DNA of 64,000 nucleotides from contig JAGIQG010000001.1 of assembly GCA_024679065.1 (NCBI GenBank), forward strand, positions 154,442,001 to 154,506,000, read 5' to 3'. The translations under genes and the position numbers were made by a program. Shown here one piece after another: positions 7,521 through 64,000 of the stretch (the stretch's first letter is position 1; every line of letters starts with the position of its first letter). This DNA is from Sphyrna mokarran. Its lineage: Eukaryota. Under the pieces are notes generated by a model. It saw nothing but the letters and a program-made list of their open reading frames with translations, made no database searches and was not told the DNA's origin.

Positions 7521-7650
7521 GTCCCTTGGATGAAGATAACCAGCCACATGGGTTCTGTAAAGTTACCTATGCCTCTGGTGACAGATTTGAAGGGCATTTT
7601 GTACATGGTGAGAAGAATGGTCGTGGGAAGTTCTATTTTTTTGATGGCAG
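7521..7650 (+). CDS. SETD7: SETD7 exon 2 (MORN repeats): GPLDEDNQPHGFCKVTYASGDRFEGHFVHGEKNGRGKFYFFDG
   Basis: Acceptor ttgtag, donor gtaaaa, 130 nt, phase continuous. Confidence 0.97.
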
Positions 7651-7994
7651 GTAAAAAAAACACAAGACCATCAATTTGAAACTTAACTTTAGCAGGATTT
7701 TTGTTTGTTGCCTGTGGTTTGGATTGTGTACATTTGTTTGGGGGATGGTCACTTTCTGTTCAGCCACTTGGTGCCAGCAAAATTTTGCGTTTATAGTCTG
7801 TGAATGCAGGAGATTCACATTCTGTAATGGATGTTTTGTTTAAATTGACTTTTGTAGACATTTGATAGTGTGTGCTTGCTGTAGTGTAACCTCAACAAAT
7901 TTCTGCTTTGCAAAACTGAAAATAATGTATTTTATGTTTTGACACACATCTATGGTGACAGTTAATAACCTATCTCTGGGTACTGTGCCCTAAG

Positions 7995-8296
7995 AGGGTG
8001 TTGGCAACCATGGATTTAGCATTGGACTGGTCCATGAATTTGCTTGTGGCAATCATGGACTTAGCACTGGATAGTCTGTGATTGTGCTTGGCAAAGTACT
8101 GCAGTGATTTGCCATTGCCTTCTGCAGTGTCAAACTTTCTCTTCTTCCAACATTTCTGCCATCAGGTGTATTGGAAGGCTGATGAACAACCTGTTTGGCC
8201 ATGTTATGAGTTCACCTTCCTTGGCTCCTGAAGTGTGACTTGAACCCAGAGTCTCTGGCTTAGAGGTAGGGACACTACTCACAGTGCCATAAGAGC
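7995..8296 (-). mobile_element. tRNA-headed SINE with RTE (BovB-like) motif
   Basis: Reverse strand: tggcactgtgagtagtg...gggttcaagtcac head, then gcagaaggcaatggcaaatcactgcagtactttgccaag; short tandem duplication at ~8000-8090. Confidence 0.6.
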
Positions 8297-8441
8297 TCCT
8301 AGATCAAAAGAGTTGAGTTCTAAATCTTTTCAGTTGCCGAGGGAGGTCTTTTCTTTCCTATTTTCTCTTTTTTCAATGGTGTCGATCTTCATGAAGGGAA
8401 GGATGGACGTCTCCAAGAATGGGATGAGTGCTGCCTTGCTG

Positions 8442-8476
8442 TGATGTAGAGATGCCGGCGTTGGACTGTGGTAAAC
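8442..8476 (-). mobile_element. 35-bp Penelope terminal fragment between 13-bp direct repeats
   Basis: tgatgtagagatgccggcgttggactg matches the ends at ~25650 and ~31400; flanks tgctgccttgctg / tgttgccttgctg. Confidence 0.6.
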
Positions 8477-9707
8477 TGTTGCCTTGCTGAGCAGTAGCTT
8501 TGTTTATATCACGAGGAGCACATTGAGGTCCTTGTCTCCTAATGTGTCCAGAGCAGAATCATGAAGTAATCTTGGGTGTATTAAGTCAAAATGCATTGCA
8601 TGCAGAATGACCTCCAGCAATTAATTATTCATGGAGTTGAGGTAGAGAGAAAGGCAAGTCTTTAAAGCTGAGTATATGGAAGAAAAATGTTGTATGATCC
8701 AAGTGACCAAAACACTGTATTGCATTATTACATTTTAATAAATCTTTTAGTTTGAGGACAAAATAGTGGTCTAGTGAAATCGCATTTAATATTGTTTATA
8801 TCTATACTCATTTTTGCAGGCAAAACTTAACTTGCTATGATTTTTAGTTTTCACATAAATTCCTAAGTCATCATTTATAATAGGATATATCTAGGTTGCG
8901 TTATCTTGTTACTACATTGTAATAGGTTTGGTCACCACATATCGTACTGCCTGCCACAAGGCATCAGTGCAGGTGAGAGCGGACAATGGGAAGGTCCATT
9001 GACCTCGGGCGGGATTTTATAATTTCAGGACAAGCAATGCTGTAAAATCCCACCCCAAATATTTTCTGAAGTTTCTCCATCTGAAATTTTTACTCTTACT
9101 AATTCACATTTTAAATCCCCAAGATGAGGATTTTTATGAAAAATAAAAATTTCAAGAAGTGTTAAATTTAAAAGCCTCCGTCTTTCCTGAAAGTTCATGA
9201 GTTTTTAACTCTTTCAGTTTAGTTGTGCAGTTTGAGCCTGTGCAGTGTACCTAATTTCCCACCATGTCCATCAACCACATTGGAATATTTTTCTGCAGCT
9301 TCCAAAAAATTTTATTGAGGGAAATGCATGTGTATTGATCAGCATTATAAATGAGATACAATATAATTTTTTTCTAAGAGCTGCATGTCAGTTTGGTGTT
9401 ACAAAAAAAACCTTACAGAAGTTAAACTTGAGTCTCTGTTCATTCAAAAAAGAATTTGAACACTAATGTCAATTAATTATCCCATCTATGCAATGGTTAC
9501 AGTTTTTTCTTTAAAAGTCAGTGCTAGCCACTTACACCTATGAGAGTTTCTAATCTTGACAAGACAAACAGAAAAGCCTGCATGAGTTGAGGGAGTGAGA
9601 CAGGAAGAATAAAATAATTAGAGAAAAGTGGGCAGTTTTTCTTTTCAGTCTTATTTTTAAATAAAATGAGTAAAACAAAACCTTTGGAAATTAGAAGACA
9701 CGAAAGC

Positions 9708-18642: not shown

Positions 18643-18939
18643 CCTATTCATATTGGCTAACATTACAGTTTTTTAAAAAAAAAATGTAAAAACGTCGTGG
18701 CTTGCTTAATACAGTTTTTGAATCATAACTGTCCTCACCTTTCTATCTTTCACTTTCTCTTGTTTGTTTTATTTATCCTCCTGTTTTAAAATAATTCCTA
18801 GCAGAATGCGTCTGTCAAAATGGCCAATCCAGCTGTGTCTAGACTGGAAAGCATTGCCTCCTTAATAAAACTTTATGCTAAATTGAAATTTGAATATGTA
18901 AAGCTGCAGCTCTTACATAAGGCACCTATTCACTCCCAA

Positions 18940-20198
18940 GTGTTTGGGATTGGTACAAGTTTGGGGATTGATACAAGGCTATCGAGGGACAGTGGGATGA
19001 GTTTGGGACTGATACAAAGCTCTGGGGAGAAAGTGGAGTAGTGCCATTACTTTGGGGGTTGACAGAGGGTGATGGAGAGAGATCGAGTTAGTGAGGTTAG
19101 TTTGGGATTGATTCAGCGTTAAGAGAGAGCAGGGCATTGAGATTATTTTGGGATTGACACAGCGCTATGGGGAGAGAGAGGCAGTGGGAATAGTTTGGGA
19201 TTGATACAGGATTATGGTGAGAGAGGGACAGTGGGATTAGTTTGGGAATTGATACATGGCTGGGGGGAGAATAGGGGAGTGGGATTAATTTGGGAATTGA
19301 TACAGGGCTAGAGAGAGAGAGTGGGGTAGTGGATTTAGTTTGTGATTTGACACGGCAGTGGGATTAGTTTGTGGACTGATGCAGGCTATGTTGAGGGAAT
19401 GGGGCAGTGGCATTATATTGGGGATTGATACAGAACTATGGGTAGGGATCAGGACAGTGAGATTAGTTTGGAATTGATACAGGGCTACAGGGAGAGAACA
19501 GGACAGTGGAATACATTTGCGATTGACACAAGGCAATGGGGAGAGAGCGGGTCAGTGGCATTAGTTTGGGGATTGATAAAGGGCTATGGTGAGAGATCGG
19601 GACACTAGGATAAGTTTGGGGATGCAGTGTAATGGGGAGAGCACGGGACAGTAGCACTTAGTTTGGGGATTGATACAGGACTATGGGGAGAGTAGGACAG
19701 TGGGATTAGATGGAGACTGAATCAGAGTACGTGCAGAGAGTGGGCAGTGGGATTTGTTAGGGGATTGATGCAGGGCTAGGGGGAGACAGCTGAGCAGTGG
19801 GATTAATTTGAGAATCGAAACTGGGTTATGGGGTGGGAGAGAGGTGCAGTGAGATTAGTTCGGGAATGATACAAAGCTATGAGAGAAAGCAGAACAGTGG
19901 TATTAATTTAGGGACTGATGCTTTGTTGAGAGATCGGGGCAGTGATATTAGTTCAGGGATTGATATAGGGTTATGAAAAGAGATTGGTACAGTAGAATTA
20001 GTTTGGGATTGATACAGGGTTACGGGGAGAGTGTGGAGCAGTGGGGCTTGTTTGGGATTGATACAGGGATATGGGATGGGAGAGAGGGGCATTAGTGTGG
20101 GGTTTGATGTAGGACATGGGGGAGAGCGGGACAGTGGGATTAGTTTGTGGTTGACGCAGGACAATGGAGAGAACGCAGTGGTATTAGTTTGGGGACTG
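18940..20198 (+). repeat. Minisatellite, ~48-50 nt unit, roughly 25 diverged copies
   Basis: Consensus approximately cagtgggattagtttgggattgatacagggctatggggagagagcggga. Confidence 0.92.
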
Positions 20199-20206
20199 AA
20201 AAAAAA

Positions 20207-21860: not shown

Positions 21861-22055
21861 ATGAGCCTTGGGAGTTCCCTGTAAATTGTGAATGATATTG
21901 ATGTATTTCTGTTTTATCCTACAGGTACTTCGGTCTGTCTTGTAATCTAACAAGGGGCATACACGCGATGGGTCGTGAGAGGGCTGCTCTTGGATATTTC
22001 GAGAGTATCCTAGTGCTTCACGTCGTTAGTGTACGCTTGACCTGGACCATTTGAT

Positions 22056-22380
22056 GGGCAACACGACAGCTCAGTGACTATCGCTGTGCTGTGCAGATAC
22101 ATGGATTTTGGGCCTGTGTCTGTGGGAGTTTGCACATTCTCCCCGTGCTTGCGTGGGTTTTCTCCGGGTGCTCCGGTTTCCTCCCACACCCCAAAGATGT
22201 GTTCTTAGGCTGATTGGGAAAACAAATTCTCCCTAAATTGTCTCAAATTTGGTTCCAATGCAGATTTCTATAAACGTAGACAGGGATCATGGGTAGAGGT
22301 GGAAACATCAAGGTGGTGGCGTGGGTTCGTTGGGCTGAAGGGCCTGTTTCTCGTGCTATTTTATTCTTTGTTCTTTGTTC
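22056..22380 (+). mobile_element. V-SINE variant with atypical head (copy 2, full length)
   Basis: Starts gggcaacacgacagctcagtgactatcg, ends (ttctttg)n. Confidence 0.88.
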
Positions 22381-31902: not shown

Positions 31903-32772
31903 CGAACACAAGTAGAACTTTTAAGGAAGGTAGCAATAGTACAGCAATGAAGAGTTTTTAAAAAATAATAAAAATAACCAACATGTGAGAGGGTCAGTGA
32001 GTGGTTGCATGTGTATGTGGTGATAAGAGTGAGAGAGAAACCTGAGATGTGGCATAAGACTCACACTCAGCCACTCGCTCAGTCATGGCACCTTCTCTTC
32101 CTGCGGCCCGCCAAACTTTGCTCTCCTGGGGCCTGGCAAAATTTTGCCCTCCCTGGGCTTCAGGTCAAATTTATTTAGCTCTTTGGCAGTAGCTTTGCCA
32201 TTGCTTTGCTTCCCTTGGCCCAGCAGCCAATGCTGGTGGCCCTCGCCAATGCTGGTGTTCGCTGCTCCTGCAATCAAAGAATGTTTCTCTCCCACATCTG
32301 CTGCTGATAGGTGAGCTAGCTCACCTATCAGAAGCAAAATCACAAGATTATACCATGATTGGAGGAGCAGCTCCAAGAAGATTCTTCCATTGAAACTCTT
32401 TGACTAGCGTTTTGAAAACTGATAGCACAAGATGGGCTTTGCAGGCATTTGGCTCCTGTGCCATACCTGGAACAAGCCTGGTTTAGTCAGAAGAAGGAAT
32501 TGGATAAAATTAGTATGACTAGAAAATAGTCCTGGAGAAATTGATGGGACTGAGAAGCAATAAATATCCAGGGTCTGATAATCTGTACCCCAAGGTTTTA
32601 AAGGAGAGAGCCATGGAAATAATGGATGTGTTGATTTTCATATTCCAAAATTGACTAGATTCTGAAACATTCTCTGCACGTTGTGGGTGGGAATGTAACC
32701 TCCTTTTTTTAAAAAAGAGAGGGAGAAAACAGAATTACAAACTGATTCACAAAAAAAAGTGGTAGGGAAAAT

Positions 32773-33090
32773 AGAACAAAGAACAAAACAGCACAGGAAA
32801 CAGGCCCTTCGGCTTAATGAGCCCACACCGCCACCTCGATGTTCACACTTCTATCTATGATCCCTGTCTATGTTTATAGATCTATACGTTGAAACCAAAT
32901 TTGAGACAATTTAGGGAGAATTTGTTCTGCCAATCAGCCTAAGAGCACATCTTTGGGATGTAGGAGGAAACCGGAGCACCCGGAGAAAACACACGCAAGC
33001 ACAGGAAGAATGCGCAAACTCCCACAGACACAGGCCCAAATCCATGTATCTGCACAGCACAGCGATAGTCACTGAGCTGTTGTGTTGCCC
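32773..33090 (-). mobile_element. V-SINE variant with atypical head (copy 3), inserted in a CR1 remnant
   Basis: Reverse complement aligns end to end with 22056-22380. Confidence 0.88.
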
Positions 33091-33419
33091 TTCAAGAAAT
33101 ATGGACTAATAATATTAACATGTATGACTTTATGAAAATAATTCTAAAGAACGTCATTCTCTATACATGAAACACGGTCATTACCCATCAAAAGTTGGTA
33201 GATTACAAAACCGCCGATTCAAATTGATTGAAAAGTCTCATTTCAGGCTTTATCAATGGCAAAAGCATTTATGTTTATTTCCAGTACCAGTTGTACAGCA
33301 GATTTTACTTTAATAAGACATTTATAATGTATACCTGTTAAGGTATTACAAGAGGTAATGTGGGTCTAACTCACATATATCTTTCATCCTCCTCAGAGTG
33401 AAAGATTCATGACATCCAA

Positions 33420-43049: not shown

Positions 43050-45185
43050 CCAGGCAGACCACCTGCATTGACCCAGGTACTGGAAACAGTAGTAGCAAAC
43101 TCAGCCCCATCAACCCTGCAAAGTTCTTGGGGACAGTACCAATGCTGAGAGAGCCCTCTCGCAGACTAGTCAGGCAACAGCTTGACATGATCTGTAAGGT
43201 ATGAATCTGAGAGTATAACGATATTCCAGATACCAGCGTCACCATTCCTAAGTATGTCCTGTGCCATCCGCATGGCAAACCCAGCAGCGATAGCAGCATA
43301 ATGGTATACAGTTGGGACGAAGTTGCTCTGACAATCCTTAACATCTGGGCTCCTTAAAGTCTCGTGGCATCAGGTCAAACATGGGCAAACATGCTGATTA
43401 CCATGTATTTCCCTCCCCCTACATAATAAACCAGTACTGCTCCATGTTGAACACCACTTGGAGGAAGCACTGAGGGCGGCAATGTTGTATTTACTCTGGG
43501 TGGGGTCTTCAATGCTCATTACCACGAGTAGCTCAATAGCACCACAAACTGAGCTGGCTGAGGCCTAAAGGGCACAACTGCTAGGTTTGATCTGTGGCAG
43601 ATGGTGAGGAAGCCAAAAGTGGAAAATACATGCCTGATTTCATTTTCACTAACCTGCCTGCTGCAGATGTGTCATCCATAACAGCATTGGTAGGAATGGC
43701 CAAAAGAGAAAATGTTGGAAAATCACAGCAGGACTGGCAGCATCTGTAAGGAGAAAAAAGAGCTGATGTTTTGAGTCCAAATGATTCTTTGTCAAAGCTT
43801 GGTAGGAGTGAGCACTGTACAGTCCTTGTGGAGATTAAGTCCCATTGTATTGTGTGGCACTATCACCATACTAAATAGGATGGATTTCACACAGATTTAG
43901 CAACTCCGGACTGGGCAGCCATGAGGTGCTACAGGCCATCAGCAACAGCGGAACTGTACTCCATCACAATCTCTGACCTCAAATCTAGCATATCCCCACT
44001 CTACTGTTACCACCAAACCAGAAGATCAATCCTTCCTCAATGAAGAATGCAGGAGAACATAACTGAAGATAAAGTGTCAGCCTGGTGAAGCTAAGTAATT
44101 CCACAAGCAACAGATCAGATCTAATTTCTGTAGTCTTGTCGCATCCAGTGGTGAAGGGTAGTAGATGATTACACAATTCACTGGAGGTGGAGGCTACATA
44201 AATATTTCCATCTTCAATGGAAGAGCCCAGCACATTAGTGCAAAAGAGAAGTCTGAAATATTTGCAACCATCTTCAGCTAGAAGTGCTGAGTGAATGATT
44301 CATCTGTGCCCCCTCTCAAAGTCCCAACATTACAGATGCCAGTCTTCAGCCAATTTGATTCACTCCATGCTTTGTCAAGAAACGGGTGAAAGCAATGGCT
44401 ATAGCAAATGTATGGGCCTTAGGAGGGAGTTGCCTTGAGAGTCCTCAACATCTGGACCCCATTAAGACTTAAGGCATCAGGTCAAACGTTTGGCAAGGAA
44501 ACTACCTGCTGATTATCACACACTGTGTCCTTCCACCACATGATGAACTAGTATTCTTCCATGTTGAACACTACTTAGAGGAAGCATTGAGGATGGAAAT
44601 GTTGCATCTACTCTGGGTGGGGTCTTCAGCATCCATCACCATGGATAGCTTAGTATCACCACAAGCAAGCAACAGAACTCGAGATTTGTGCTTCACATGT
44701 CCCTCACCAAACTGCTTATGTACAACTACAGCAATGACATTTACAATGTGCACAGTTTCTCAGGTATGTCCTATACACAAAATGAAACTCTGCCAATAAC
44801 TTCCCCATCATAATATTCTCAGCCGTCAGTAAAGTGATGAAAGGGGTCATCAGTGCTATCAAGCAGCACTTACTTAGCAACAACATGCTCACTGTTCGGG
44901 TTCTAGCAGGGCCTGATCTTACAGCTTTGGTTCAAACCGAACTCCAGGGGTGAGATAACGTCCTTGACATCAAGATAGCATTTGACCAAATGTAGCATCG
45001 AAGAACTCTAGCAAAACTGGAGTCGGGGGGAAATCTCCCTGCTGGTTGGAGTCATACCTGGCACAAGGATGAAATTTGTGGTTGTTGGTAATTTATTTAA
45101 GTTCCATTCATCACTACATGAATTCCTTAGGGATGGGCAATAAATGTTGGTGTAACCAATGATGCCCCACCCGCATGAATGTTTT
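43050..45185 (+). mobile_element. Fragmented LINE (clade uncertain), endonuclease and RT remnants with a repeated EN segment
   Basis: catgttgaacaccacttggaggaagcactgagg occurs at ~43443 and ~44560; LDIK.AFD remnant near 44965; tail gggatgggcaataaatg. Confidence 0.75.
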
Positions 45186-47329: not shown

Positions 47330-48155
47330 AATGACAATGGATGAAGCAGCAAGATCTAAAAAGCTTTCGGGCTTGGGCTGATAAGTGGCGAGTAATATTT
47401 ACACCACACAAGGAAATAATAATCTCCAAAAGAGAGAATCTAACCATCTCCCCTTGACCTTCATTAGTACAAATCTTGCAGAATTCCCCCACTATCAACG
47501 GCCAGGGGGGAATTATCAATTACCAGAAACTGAATTAAATAAGGCATATAACACTGTGCCTACAAGAACAGGTCAGAGCTAGGAATTCTGCGTAGAGTAA
47601 TTCACACCTTGCTCCCAAAGTCTGTCCACCATCTTCAAGATACAAGGTAGATGTATGACGAAATACCTCCTCTTACCTGGATGAGTGCAGATCCAATAAA
47701 ACTCAAATACGGTCAGAGACAGTCCACTTGCTTGAAACACATCCACCAGCTTTAACATCCATTACCTCTTCAAATCACTGATGCATAGTAGCAATAATGT
47801 GCACCATTTACAAAATGCACTGCAGCAACTCACCAAGGCTCCTTAGAGATTACCTTCCAAATCTTCAATCTACCTAGAAGGATAAGGGCTATAAATGCAT
47901 GGGAACACCATAAGCTGCTAGTTTCTCTCCAAGCCACAGACCATCCCAACTTGGAAAAATAATGCTGTTCCTTCACTGTCACTGGGTCAAAATTCTGGAA
48001 CTCCCTCCCTAACAGCACTGTGGGTGTACCTACACCACATGGATGGCAATGGTTCAAGAAGGTGCATTATTACCAACTTCTCAAGGACAATTAAGGATGG
48101 GCAATAAAAATATAGGCCTAACCAATGACATCCTTATCCCCATGAGTGATTTTAA
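47330..48155 (+). mobile_element. LINE 3' fragment, same family as 43050 and 58960
   Basis: ctgtccacca...ttacctggatgagtgcag...caattaaggatgggcaataaa. Confidence 0.8.
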
Positions 48156-57970: not shown

Positions 57971-58529
57971 CAAATCTTACAGTGAGTTAATTTGGAAATG
58001 TTAAGTATAGCAAAAGGCTGTATTATCGTTTGTTTCTTTATACTAAAATGGTTTATGCACACAGTCTGTCAGTGAAAGTCTTTGTTTAATGTCTCATTCT
58101 TTTGCACCAAAACCATGCTGGTTTATGCATGCAGCACAGAGCCTGTGAGTCTTGGTACAGTATCTCATCTGACTTCTAACAGCAATGTGGCTTGTGCTGC
58201 TATGTAAAATGAGTTTGAATATACAAGCTGGGCAACTATTTAAAGGAAGGAAAGATGGAAGTCAGACAGAGCCCAAATGCAAACTACTAAACTGTTTAAA
58301 AGGTCACATGGTTCTTGTAGTTCAGCTGAACAAATTTATGTAAACAGTCTCTAATGGTACAGTAATTGTTTTTTCATTCAAGTTTCTGTAGTCTTAAGAT
58401 GTATAACACTACAATGAAATGACACGAAGCCATTAATTTATAAGGGTGCTTTTTTCTGTCAAGTTCAATTACAATTCGTACAAATGAAATAACTCATCAT
58501 AGTTGAACATAACATGGCAAGGCAGTCTC

Positions 58530-58955
58530 TCCCTTCAAAATGTGTTCTGCTAATCAATATCCAGCCTCAGTACACTTTCCTGCCTGCTGTTCATAAAGTC
58601 CTGATCCTATAGTTCAACAGTCTGTCTAGCTCAGCTTTGACTATATGTGGAGATTCCACCTCCATAGTTTTCTGGGATAAAGAATTCCAAAGATTCACAA
58701 CCATCAGAGAAGGAATTACTTCTCTTTCAAGATGAGGATAATGTGGCACCTATCCTTATTTTGAATATGTATACAAATGTAGTAAAAATATTCTGAAGTT
58801 AGTTGTAGGTTCCCCAGTGAGGCAAAAATCCTCTCAGCATCTTCCCTATCAAGCCCCCTTAGAGATATGATATGTTTGAATAAGATCACCTCTCATTCTT
58901 TTAAATTCCAAAAGGTTTAAGCCCAAACTGCTCAACATTTCCTCATGAAACAACC
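58530..58955 (-). mobile_element. CR1 3' fragment
   Basis: agaattccaaagattcacaacc, taagatcacctctcattctt. Confidence 0.7.
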
Positions 58956-58959
58956 GGTC

Positions 58960-61790
58960 AGAGTGATCAAAGCATGGTCTTTATGGAGGCCAAGTCCCAT
59001 CTTCACAATCCCTTCATTGTGTTATGTGGTACTGTCACTGTGCTAAATGGGATTGATTTAGAACAGATCTAGCAATTTGACTAGGAAACCATGATGCAGC
59101 AATAGAATTGTAGTCAACCACACTCTAACCTAATAACTTGGCATATTCTCCCATGACCTGGGAATCCCCCACTCTACTATTACCACCAGGCCAGAGGATC
59201 AACCCTGCTTCATGAAAAGTACGGAATAGTATGCAGGAGCAGCACCAAGCACGTGTAAAAATGAAGTGTCAACTTAATGAAGCTACAACATTGGGCTACT
59301 TGCATGCACAGCAGCATAAACAACAAGTGACAGAAAAAGCTAAGTGATTCCACAACTATTAGATCAGAACTAAACTCTGCAGTCCTGCCACATCCAGTTG
59401 TGAAAAGTTGAGAACAATTAAACCATTCGCCAAAGGAGTCTCCATAAATATCCCCATCCTCAATGCTGGGGAAGCCCAGCACGTTACAAAAGATAAGGCT
59501 GAAGCACTCGCAACAATCTTCAATCAGATGTACCAAGTGGATGATCCACCTCAGCCTACAACAGAGGTTCCCAACACCTTGGATGCCAGTCTTCAGACAA
59601 TTTAATTCATTCCACGTGATATCAAGAAACATCACAAGGTACTGGATACTGCAAAGGCTTTGGGCCCTGATGATATTCCAACAGTAGTACTAAAAGACCT
59701 GTGCTTCAGAACTTAATGTATCCCTAGCCAAGCTCTTTCAGTATAGCTTCAACACTGGCATCAAGCTGGCAATGTGGAAAATTGCCCAGATGTGTTGTGT
59801 ACATATATGCAAATGCAATTTGGCCAATTGCTACCCGAGCAGTCTACACTGAGTGAAACAATGGAAGGAGTCATCAACAGTGCTATCAAGCAGCACTTGT
59901 TTAGCAGTAACCTGCTCAGGGGTGTTCAGTTTTGGTTATGCCAGGGTTCTCGGCTACTAACTTCATCACCGGCCTTGGTTCAAACATGGACGAACCAGCT
60001 GAACTCTAACAGTGAGGTGAGAGTCACTGTCTTTCACGTCAAGGCAATATTTGACTGAGTGTGGCATCAAGGAGGCCCAGCAAAACTGGAATTAGTGGGA
60101 GTTGGGATAAAAATTTTCTACTGGATGGAGTCATGTCCACAACAAAGGAAAATGGTTGTTCTTGTTGGAGGGCAATCACTTCAGTTCCATGACATCACTC
60201 TTTTCTTTTAACTCCTGTAGTGTTATTTAAAGACCTTCCTTTGATCATAAAGTCAGAAGTGAGGATGTTTGTTGTTTGTATAATGTTCAGCATTCATAAC
60301 TCCTTAGGTACTAAAGCAGTCCATGTCCAAATGTGGTAAGCCTTGGACAATATTCAGGCTTGGGTTTGACAAGTGGCAAGTAACATTTGTGTTATACAAA
60401 TGCTAGGTAATAACCATTTCCAACAAGAATCAATCTAACACTTGCTGCTTGACATTGAATGGCATTACCATCAGTGAATCCCTTACTTTCAATTTAATAT
60501 TGATCAGAAACTGAGCTACACCTGCTTTGTAAATGCTTTGGCTACAAGAGCAGGTGAGAATCTAGGAATCCTGCAATGACTAACTTGCCTCCTGACTTTC
60601 TAATACCTGTCCACCAGGTATGGACCAAAAATATTGGTCCATAAAATTATTTCCTATATCTGTTGCAGTGGGAAGAATAGGAAAGCAAAATATTTTAATG
60701 GAGACTTTAGAATGTTTTTGTTACAGAAGATCTGGATATCCGAAGACATGAAGTACAAAGAGTTAGAATGCAGGCACAGTAGAAGACAAAATTACAAGGG
60801 AAATGGAATATAAAAGACTTGCTAGAATTGTACATGGCACTGGTGATGTCTTGGTCTATTTCTAAAAAAAAAGAGGGGATATACTGTGAACTTCCACTAT
60901 TCACAGAAGGTTCACCAAGTTGTTTCTTGAATTAATTCATAGGATGTGGGCATCCCTAATTGCCCTTGAGAAGCTGGTAGTAAATTGCCTGCTTGAATTG
61001 CTGCAGTCCATGAATGTAGATGTATTGCAGTTGGAAGGGGGAGGGAGAAAACAGAAGTTCCAGAATTTCAACCTAGCAACAGTGAAGGAACAGCAATTTA
61101 TTTCGAAGTCGGGTTGTTGAGTGGTTGTGCTCCCACGTATCTGGTGTCCTTGTCTTAAGTGATAGTAGCCACAAGTTTGGAAAGTACTATTTAAAGTAGC
61201 CTAGATTGCATCTTGTCAATGGAACGCACTGCTGCTATTATGTGTCGGTGGTGTAGGGAATGGATGTTTGTAGATGGAGTGCTAGTCAAGTGGGGAGCTT
61301 TCCTGGATGCTGTTGAGCTACCCGAGTGCTGTTGGAGCTGCACTCATCCAGGGAATATTTTGTATTTACCTGGATGAGTGCAGCTCCAACAGCACTCGGG
61401 TAGCTCAACAGCATCCAGGAAAGCTCCCCACTTGACTAGCACTCCATCTACAAACATCCATTCCCTACACCACCGACACATAATAGCAGCAGTGCGTTCC
61501 ATTGACAAGATGCAATCTAGGCTACTTTAAATAGTACTTTCCAAACTTGTGGCTACTATCACTTAAGACAAGGACACCAGATACGTGGGAGCACAACCAC
61601 TCAACAACCCGACTTCGAAATAAATTGCTGTTCCTTCACTGTTGCTAGGTTGAAATTCTGGGACTTCTGTTTTCTCCCTCCCCCTTCCAACTGCAATACA
61701 TCTACATTCATGGACTGCAGCAATTCAAGCAGGCAATTTACTACCAGCTTCTCAAGGGCAATTAGGGATGCCCACATCCTATGAATTAAT
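58960..61790 (+). mobile_element. LINE (same family as 47330), interrupted by an inverted duplication
   Basis: KDKAEALATIFNQ, VRVTVFHVKAIFD; reads to 60616 and resumes at ~61353 to tail caattagggatgcccacatcctatgaat. Confidence 0.8.
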
Positions 61791-62097
61791 TCAAGAAACA
61801 ACTTGGTGAACCTTCTGTGAATAGTGGAAGTTCACAGTATATCCCCCTCTTTTTTTTTTTAGAAATAGACCAAGACATCACCAGTGCCATGTACAATTCT
61901 AGCAAGTCTTTTATATTCCATTTCCCTTGTAATTTTGTCTTCTACTGTGCCTGCATACTAACTCTTTGTACTTCATGTCTTCGGATATCCAGATCTTCTG
62001 TAACAAAAACATTCTAAAGTCTCCATTAAAATATTTTGCTTTCCTATTCTTCCCACTGCAACAGATATAGGAAATAATTTTATGGACCAATATTTTT
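60627..62097. repeat. Long near-perfect inverted repeat: arms 60627-61352 and 61369-62097, 16-nt spacer
   Basis: Direct reverse-complement comparison; mirrored ORFs 60920+/61601- and 60707-/61817+. Confidence 0.97.
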
Positions 62098-62204
62098 CCA
62101 CTCACTTAACCTCAGCACTTATCTCTGTGGCACTCCACTAATTAAAGTTTGCCAACCTGAAGATGACCCATTTATCCCGACAAACTTCTTAGCTATTGTA
62201 AGAG

Positions 62205-62455
62205 GCAGCATATTGGTAGAGTGGTTAGCACTGTAACCTCACAGTGCCAGGGACTCGGGTCCGATTCTTGGCTTAGGTCACTGTCTGTACAGAGTCTGTA
62301 AGTTCTCCCTGTGTCTGCTTTGTTTTCCTCTGGGTACTCCAATTTCCTCCCATAGTCCGAAAGAGCTGCTGGTTAGGTGCGTTGGTCATGCTAAATTCTT
62401 TCCGTGTACCTGAACAAGCACGGGAATAATGTAAGCCTACTTGTGACACTAAAAT
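62205..62455 (+). mobile_element. V-SINE with L2-type tail inside a minus-strand CR1 remnant (~61790-62600)
   Basis: gtggttagcactg...gggtccgattc; flanking MGEGEPVGVMYIDFQK. Confidence 0.8.
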
Positions 62456-63859
62456 AATGTTACTACCAACACCATCAAATCTTACTTTGTATGGTAACGT
62501 TTTATGTGACACCTTCTGAAAATCAATATACATTACACCCACTGGTTCTCCTTCACCCATCTTGCTTGTTGTATTCTTAAGAGAGCTGTAGTGAATTTGT
62601 AGGAAAGGAAAATCGTGTTATAATTTAATATGGCTTTTACAATTTTCTAATTGTGGTACATGTACTTTTTTGATAATGGATTCCAGAGTTAAGCAAGAAT
62701 TATCTTGTGTCTTTTACTCCTGACTCTGTAACTACTTGACAATTTTATGAACGAGATGTCCACACCCAGCAGAGTTAACATGTGATGAATTATAGCTAAT
62801 GCCATAGAAACTATGCCTGCCTGTCAAGATGCTGTATTACCACTTATTAAAATCTCATTGTTCCTGCCATTAATATAAATCCTTTTATAGAAGGATTAGT
62901 TCCTTCCATTTTGAAACTTGGAGAGCAGTCTCAAATTTAAACCCAATGGTTTAAAATTGTGTACTACACAAAACTGACCAAAAACACTACGTTTTGGAGG
63001 AGTTAACATTTAATTTAAATTGAATTAAGTCAAATAATAACATGTAATCTAACATTTCACTACACATTCTAGATGTGACATTTGTGAGAAAAATAAGTGT
63101 CTCCTGGTATTCCCACAGAATAGTCCAACTTCATTTGTACTGTAATTTCCCCAAATGATGAGTTCCTGAAGACGGCGATGCCAAATCATTCTATCTCACT
63201 CGCTGGGATTATCAACACGCCTGCTTCAGTTGTGACATTGATTCAGCAAAAATTAAGTGTGAATTTGGTGATTTTAAATGTCACTAAAACCAAGGACTCA
63301 AACTGAGATTTAACAGTTAAGTCTTGTTATCATTGAAACAATATCTGCAGACTTTAAGTCAAAACTAAATTTAGATTTCATTTATTTATTATAGTTTCCC
63401 TGAAACAGGTTAACTGCTGTGTAAATAAAGTAGGGAAAAGTAGCAAATTGGGTACATTGTTCACAATGTATTATATTCACACAGGAAAGATTTCTCCCCT
63501 AGGTTGCGTCTTCGGCACCCATCTTTCAACACAAATCATACACGTTCATTTCTTAAAATTGTAGTGTTCTTGAAATAGCTGTCTTTAAGATGAAACCATT
63601 TTGGCCGTGGTCCTAAATTTGAATAGCAGATGCTGAACTGTAACTCAAACTTTCAAATAGCTAGCCCACAGCTTCATGACATTTGCATGTGCTGATTTCA
63701 GAGTTTATATGATTTCACACGCACAGTTTCTACTATCTGTTTCACATATTGGTTTCCTGCATTGACAGCAGTCATTTTACATAAAAGTGGAACCTTTTCA
63801 AGCCACCAAAATAATTGAAATCCACGTGCTGAGTACATACCTATCCATGGTGCATGTGC

Positions 63860-64000
63860 ATCACTTCTTGGCCTTTTGGCTAAGATCAAGCGTAGGATCA
63901 AGTCCGAGATCAGATGTAATGCCTATTCTTGTCAGCTTGGGGCTCTAGTAATTGTGTCTAGTGGGGACCATGAATTGGATTCATTTCAAATTGGTTTTGG
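63860..64000 (+). mobile_element. U2 snRNA-headed short repeat (copy 2, runs off the window end)
   Basis: 63860-63895 atcacttcttggccttttggctaagatcaagcgtag matches U2 nt 1-36 with 3 mismatches, then non-U2 body. Confidence 0.78.

Follow-up and report, generated by a model that had tools for sequence, protein, structure and literature searches.

Probable chained template switching behind a young near-perfect palindrome in a decayed LINE of Sphyrna mokarran

Introduction

Rearrangements of the FoSTeS/MMBIR type are characterised by several template switches, short microhomologies, and templated pieces copied from near the breakpoints. Both processes are named in PMC5453318 and PMC10766186. Local events have also been described by a four-point switch model, in which a stretch from close by is inserted as its reverse complement and exactly two switches take synthesis away from its strand and back again. 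According to the available part of PMC5453318 (Loytynoja and Goldman 2017), events of type 1-4-3-2 and its mirror account for 31% of high-confidence human–chimpanzee events. Chained local switches have been reported as well, and in the accessible text of a human haplotype survey, events average 11.6 bp and the longest reaches 318 bp (Loytynoja 2022, 10.1101/2021.11.26.470150).

Other inverted duplications are attributed to fold-back. In the available portion of one study, human inverted duplications carry 2–8 bp of inverted homology together with templated insertions (Hermetz et al. 2014, PMC3907307), while the accessible sections of another report that fold-back priming occurs at imperfect repeats (Al-Zain et al. 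2023, PMC10622511). A further system, ODIRA, is treated in PMC10766186, where the part available also describes long interrupted palindromes as unstable and rare in natural genomes.

Here, we examine a palindrome in a 64-kb stretch of contig JAGIQG010000001.1 (the window; 64,000 nt, to which all positions refer). As a structural variant it is unremarkable and of a type already known, and it is long among such events. We put at roughly 0.75 the probability that it is a real, young local inverted duplication, produced inside a dead LINE during one episode of faulty synthesis by chained, microhomology-guided template switches.

Architecture of the palindrome

The window contains one near-perfect palindrome, with arms of 726 and 729 nt around a 16-nt spacer (Table 1). 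Arm alignment reproduced exactly what the original prediction had described, namely these lengths, about two substitutions, and differences in homopolymer length, and the observation of the palindrome is thus confirmed. The arms are 98.6% identical over 1475 columns, and their pairing ends abruptly at 60627/62097. One substitution lies at 60767 (A, whose partner 61957 reads T on the opposite strand) and the other at 61059 (T, whose partner 61662 reads C). Near 60864–60878, the left arm has an A-run of 9 where the right arm has 11, and a neighbouring G-run of 4 where the right arm has 5. The match is not due to chance: the window has 97 further self-matches that reach 100 nt or more, and all fall far below it, the closest being 90% identical across 100 nt and 88% identical across 330 nt. 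Within the 64-kb window, the arms occur in two copies.

Substitutions separate the arms at 2 of 726 sites, or 0.28% (95% interval 0.03–1.0%). Because in-window paralogs are 29–40% diverged, the inverted copy would be young. Its earlier description as recent is consistent with the substitution count, and holds only if the arms have not been homogenised by arm-to-arm conversion.

Table 1. Positions of the palindrome, its left junction, and the sequences compared with them (X1 is a public sequencing run)
Feature	Position	Strand	Description	Basis
Paralogous LINE copy	47366..48099	+	Stand-in for the un-duplicated state; outside the palindrome	Sequence match
Left flank	59015..60616	+	Decayed LINE-like reverse-transcriptase region; old; ends at proposed switch point 1	Paralogs, broken frames, X1 contigs
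7-nt match	60614..60620	-	Reverse complement of 61367-61373 (centre breakpoint); possible first short switch, or chance	Sequence match
Junction piece	60617..60626	+	10 nt between old flank and new arm; unpaired with right flank	Inside X1 contig 60300-60656, 0 differences
10-nt match	60619..60628	+	Identical, in forward orientation, to 62081-62090, which lies 7–16 nt in from the far breakpoint at the right arm's outer end	Sequence match
Left arm	60627..61352	-	726 nt; new inverted copy	Arm comparison, paralog, X1 contigs 60627-61103 (depth 24.1) and 61075-61352 (depth 15.4)
Spacer	61353..61368	+	16 nt, single-copy; old LINE sequence, probably in original orientation; weak imperfect hairpin	Paralog, folding, reading frame
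Right arm	61369..62097	+	729 nt; original copy; LINE to ~61770, low-copy beyond	Paralog match 61366-61770 to 47673-48099; mirror-position depth

The age of each arm can be judged from related LINE copies. The left flank matches paralogs at 43843–45115 and 47366–47631 at 60–71% identity. The longer copy at 47366–48099 aligns to the left flank up to 60616 and then continues in the right arm, from 61366 to ~61770, at 62–71% identity. Because this paralog shows left flank, spacer, and right arm colinear, the three represent one old element, and the left arm is a new copy that interrupts it. This agrees with the original assignment of the right arm and spacer as original, which the reading frame of the spacer also favours. 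Between its two anchors, the paralog has 41 nt, and the palindrome locus retains 13 nt as spacer, leaving 26–28 nt absent relative to this single old paralog. The proposal that the left arm had replaced about 30 nt therefore fits the missing length, although part of the loss may predate the duplication.

The spacer itself is probably in its original orientation. A Tyr codon is separated from the Trp-Met after it by 12 nt when the spacer is read forward, and by 11 nt when the spacer is reversed. The reversed spacer matches the paralog, without gaps, about as well as the forward spacer does. An inverted-spacer reading (type 3-1-4-2, with a 5-nt overlap at the return) was set aside on the reading frame, which is a modest argument.

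Junctions and proposed mechanism

The original prediction overlooked the 10-nt junction piece, which we take to be a mark of chained template switching. Each base of the junction can be matched to sequence lying no more than 20 nt from one or other of the two remaining breakpoints. The segment that copies 62081–62090 forms a small 10-bp hairpin with the start of the left arm, and of 58,990 10-mers taken from other parts of the window, 24 have a match no more than 30 nt away from 62097. The 7-nt match to the centre breakpoint is weaker: it is one of several patterns examined, and 168 of 58,993 7-mers elsewhere match 61360–61380. Microhomology amounts to 2 nt at 60627–60628, 1–2 nt at the centre, and, depending on the reading, 2–6 nt at the landing site at 62081, junction overlaps this short being common by chance. 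Alternatively, the first 8 of the 10 junction nucleotides may have been LINE sequence already in place, spared by an earlier deletion. They would then have supplied the 6-nt landing homology, and the duplication would have lost almost nothing. Under either reading of the junction piece, there are at least three switches.

In the proposed sequence of events, synthesis would depart from its template at about 60616–60624 and land ~720 nt ahead at 62081–62090, where a few bases would be copied. It would then flip strands at 62097 (2-nt overlap), copy back over 726 nt as far as 61369, and switch to its starting strand again at 61352/61353 (1–2 nt overlap), with a loss of at most 26–28 nt. The switch points would have the order 1-4-3-2. 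Such an order (1 < 4 < 3 < 2, with the spacer not inverted) fits when the single 62–71% paralog is used as the ancestral stand-in together with the reading frame. The same product could also be reached from the right side, if a 3' end folded back on the weak spacer hairpin and was extended by 726 nt, and the extended end was then joined to the other end with the templated piece. We hold the version at a fork to be slightly more probable than the version at a broken end, though sequence cannot separate the two.

Replication template switching of the FoSTeS/MMBIR type, as originally suggested, is supported by microhomology at the junctions, and the templated piece (60619–60628, equal to 62081–62090) strengthens the suggestion. 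The locus resembles FoSTeS/MMBIR products in its several switches, short microhomologies, and pieces templated near the breakpoints. It differs from them in being sub-kilobase and wholly local, and the window shows neither a direct duplication nor a triplication surrounding it.

The left arm is a reverse complement of sequence close by, and in this respect the locus resembles the four-point switch, as it does in its strand return, its probably direct spacer, and its small loss between points 1 and 4 (PMC5453318; 10.1101/2021.11.26.470150; both in their available parts). Two features set it apart from the events in those texts. The copied segment is 726 nt, over twice the 318-bp maximum of the human short-range survey, and the 10-nt junction piece has a template of its own, which requires at least one further switch, absent from the basic two-switch model. 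The locus is thus best described as the chained form, and it would represent a clean natural example with a readable junction.

Similarities to fold-back inverted duplications, as these appear in the available portions of PMC3907307 and PMC10622511, include a single-copy spacer, short imperfect inverted homology, and a templated insertion at the other junction. However, the duplications described there are megabase-sized and involve a terminal deletion or a dicentric intermediate, with spacers of 766–70,466 bp in the human set. Here, in contrast, the chromosome continues beyond the palindrome, no more than 28 nt have gone missing, and 16 nt separate the arms. An adjacent terminal deletion, translocation, or dicentric signature is absent, the left flank being colinear old sequence. 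Spacer homology of the kind in Hermetz et al. 2014 is weakly present: the 16-nt spacer lengthens the long stem by 4 pairs and folds alone at -0.1 kcal/mol.

Lastly, the locus shares with ODIRA a palindromic junction at a short interrupted inverted repeat and a centre that is expected to decay (PMC10766186, available part). It differs in having two copies rather than three, one palindromic junction, and no flanking direct repeat. An inverted triplication was rejected on the two copies in the 64-kb window and on a sequencing depth of 1.7x.

Support from public sequencing data

Among public DNA runs, the one designated X1 holds 0.92 of the sampled words of the stretch, while X2 and X3, from one other sample, hold 0.05. 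Contigs of the three runs were compared with 59000–61420, which takes in the left flank, left arm, and spacer together with 52 nt at the start of the right arm. The assembly may itself have been built from X1, which thus argues against a stray read rather than providing independent replication. The contigs come from Logan, which keeps each 31-mer once and drops words seen once (available part of PMC12424806). As each 31-mer is kept once, two arms collapse into one contig that is broken where their flanks diverge. Logan depths are approximate, and the depth of an X1 contig can rise through words shared with paralogs.

One X1 contig of 357 nt (60300–60656, depth 14.1) crosses the left junction with 0 differences and extends 30 nt into the arm. 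It reaches 40 letters past 60616 and 30 past 60626, the latter one below the tool's bridging rule. Junction words make up 40 of its 327 words; had these been at depth 2, the mean would be 12.7 instead of the 14.1 observed. The other four long flank contigs have depths of 14.3, 14.2, 14.2, and 13.3, and an 81-nt flank contig at 20.9, whose depth paralogs have probably inflated, was not counted when the flanks were averaged.

The contig that follows begins precisely at 60627, overlaps the junction contig by 30 nt, and has a depth of 24.1, or 1.72x the flank. Such an overlap is expected as the branch formed when a single collapsed arm joins two different flanks. The outer-arm contig combines right-arm letters (at 60767 and in the homopolymers) with the letter of the left arm at 61059, as would be the case for two arms collapsed into one. 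Under each of three read settings, a one-copy model failed to give 1.72x in any of 600 runs. Most X1 molecules thus carry the left junction together with the outermost ~450 nt of the duplicated sequence. Over most of the left flank, the X1 contigs show one difference in all. At 59837, both X1 contigs over the site read C where the window has G, which may reflect an allele, another individual, or an assembly error.

Neither an un-duplicated allele nor an orthologous long contig was found in X2 and X3, which gave only short pieces of ~90% identity. One X2/X3 contig (depth 13.6–13.7) covers 60767 without the right-arm letter. This is a faint hint that the left-arm letter there is the older state, and too little to polarise the change.

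The runs also bear on the original claim that the arm crosses a boundary between two unrelated repeats. For its outer third, this is incorrect. Summed X1 contig depth is 27–72 in the four bins of 60620–60943 and 1,000–24,000 in the six bins of 60944–61420, and the outer ~320 nt of the arm is low-copy sequence, not a second repeat. The host repeat, in contrast, is high-copy and dispersed, with 7,641–9,290 contigs matching at 88% identity or more in each of the three runs. The frames of the left-flank LINE are broken, and we take its broken translations to resemble ORF2 of CR1-group LINEs. Similarly, the repeat landscape of the window presumably resembles that of cartilaginous fish. Database searches with the host repeat gave no Pfam match in 8 frames, no PDB match for its proteins, and none among 71 protein-search candidates, and pattern scans with the LINE stretch had 0 matches in metagenome contigs and 0 in viral contigs. 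An Atlas score of 0.87 to a cluster with RVT_1 on 21% of its members is a lead only.

The palindrome centre and competing explanations

The inner part of the arm behaves differently from the outer part. The X1 contig at 61075–61352 (278 nt) has a depth of 15.4, or 1.10x the flank. Its one extra base mismatches 61353, with continuation on the right-arm side only. None of the 8 X1 pieces listed spans the centre (28,356 further pieces lie outside that list), and no alternative joint occurs among the 15 joints listed of 955. The original prediction had named half coverage over the arms as one sign of a fold-back read or an assembly artefact; the outer arm, at 1.7x, does not show it, whereas the inner 278 nt, at 1.1x, do. 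The share of X1 words is uninformative here, since 8% are missing where the known differences would remove 4.1% of 3,069 words, or 5.6% with the centre.

Simulated libraries were compared with these depths. A plain two-copy model fell as low as 1.10x in 1, 2, and 0 of 600 runs, while a short-read library losing centre-spanning fragments matched both arm depths in 133 and 119 of 600. The X1 flank depths are very even (SD 0.41), which occurred in 0–2 of 600 runs under each of ten short-read models and in ~26% with 15-kb reads. Because this evenness is rare in the short-read models, X1 may consist of accurate long reads, to which dropout by fragment size does not apply. Long-read models, each retaining 2,109–2,207 of 3,000 runs (flank depth 10–18) and using deletion sizes chosen after the data were seen, matched both depths in 41% of runs if both alleles are without the inner left arm. 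The value was 23% if one allele is without both inner arms, 6% if one is without the inner left arm, and 0% for the full palindrome on both alleles and for the plain heterozygous or un-duplicated states. A plain heterozygote, with one full and one un-duplicated allele, was disfavoured (2 of 600 runs per short-read setting, 35 and 13 of 600 with dropout, and 0.000 of 2,173 long-read runs). Nanopore-type loss of a whole second arm (PMC7229812, available part) was also set aside, as by reasoning it would lower both arm contigs alike, unlike the 1.72x observed. Under these models, the candidate explanations for the centre are hairpin-related dropout, a second allele that has lost it, and an incorrect centre, and contig depth near a palindrome centre is unreliable as a measure of copy number.

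The most substantial rival accepts the duplication and its left junction, and holds that the inner ~280 nt and 16-nt centre of the window are wrong, or a minority form in X1. The run could contain a second allele without the centre, or a shorter left arm (~450–500 nt), with the centre in the window then derived from another individual or from misassembly. A centre-deleted second allele is compatible with our preferred explanation, and the rival proper requires a centre that is wrong or in the minority. It gains from the flank evenness, from the long-read fits above, and from arm loss being a described fate of palindromes (PMC10766186, available part). However, dropout in short reads matches the depths repeatedly, and palindromes are reportedly under-represented in PCR-based libraries (PMC4057610, quoting an unpublished observation). 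Hairpins also reduce long-read cover, for satellites at least, in the accessible part of 10.64898/2026.07.13.738322. In addition, the listed joints offer no alternative, the Logan depths are approximate, and the deletion sizes were post hoc. On balance, we regard this rival as unlikely. A centre-deleted allele lying beside the full allele, taken alone, is somewhat more credible, though still doubtful; if this were the source of the low inner depth, the palindrome would be decaying from its centre in a wild germ line.

Far less probable is that the whole palindrome is a laboratory or assembly artefact, such as a fold-back read, a missed adapter, or a chimera from whole-genome amplification. Long near-perfect palindromes are difficult to sequence (PMC7229812, available part), homopolymer lengths make up half of the arm differences, the inner depth is that of a single copy, and X1, the sole run containing the stretch, may be the source of the assembly. 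Nonetheless, X1 yields the junction path on its own and at full depth, both flanks continue normally, so that at least two switches are needed, and the centre is genomic LINE sequence rather than adapter. A stray chimeric read is unlikely, since the left junction is crossed by a contig free of differences and the contig of the outer arm, at 1.7x, starts exactly at the arm end. Among artefacts, a jackpot chimera arising during DNA amplification is the one form that may still be a candidate. The long arms, inverted and ending sharply, could also suggest that a DNA transposon of the fold-back or TIR type had inserted into the LINE, which we consider exceedingly improbable. There is no target-site duplication (direct repeats shared by the 30-nt flanks reach 4 nt at most, and the one of that length does not touch both ends), the arms have low-copy outer ends with no other match in the window, and the LINE seen in the left flank goes on into the right arm, with no coding frame that matches Pfam. 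The original view that the arm is not a transposon TIR is upheld by the same evidence.

Possible function and genomic surroundings

The chained inverted duplication preferred here has little significance by itself. It is probably a neutral variant in repeat-rich DNA in which no gene was found, and most likely it has no function; it is probably unstable. No Pfam family scored above cut-off in the 70 frames of at least 85 residues across the window, a search that short exons would escape, and the palindrome may be intronic.

We consider it highly improbable that the locus is a hairpin-RNA gene at birth, in which read-through transcription would produce ~730 bp of near-perfect dsRNA, ~400 bp of it derived from a LINE family that has thousands of related pieces across the genome, and this would give small RNAs acting on the LINE family while a centre-deleted second allele exists in the same animal. 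If that combination were true, the birth and decay of a palindrome would have been caught in one germ line. Hairpin genes derived from template switches or inverted repeats are already in print (10.1101/2023.04.19.537475 and PMC10317233, in their available parts), and the locus would then be a fresh case of a known route.

A standard Rfam scan gave 0 matches at gathering score over the window, and scans for tRNAs and bacterial promoters gave no match. With laxer filters on 58000–64000, the palindrome centre scores on several microRNA models, reaching 75.6 against a cut-off of 75 for MIR898 (61291–61430). This identity was rejected, as the score reflects perfect pairing rather than homology, and long perfect hairpins can yield a false family call.

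Several other features were seen in the window. The sequence at 63860–63989 (+) is U2 snRNA-like (RF00004, 41.5 bits against a gathering score of 46, E 6e-6) and is probably a decayed pseudogene. A dispersed repeat of ~200 nt at 62189–62425, which we assume to be SINE-like, has 20 matching pieces in the window at 63–80% identity. Degenerate tandem arrays at 18937–20199 have a 47–49-nt unit in 7 and 17.5 copies and are strongly G-skewed. Finally, 22051–22380 and 32767–33095 form an inverted pair of 330 nt, 88% identical and 10 kb apart, which looks like a younger dispersed repeat present in two copies.
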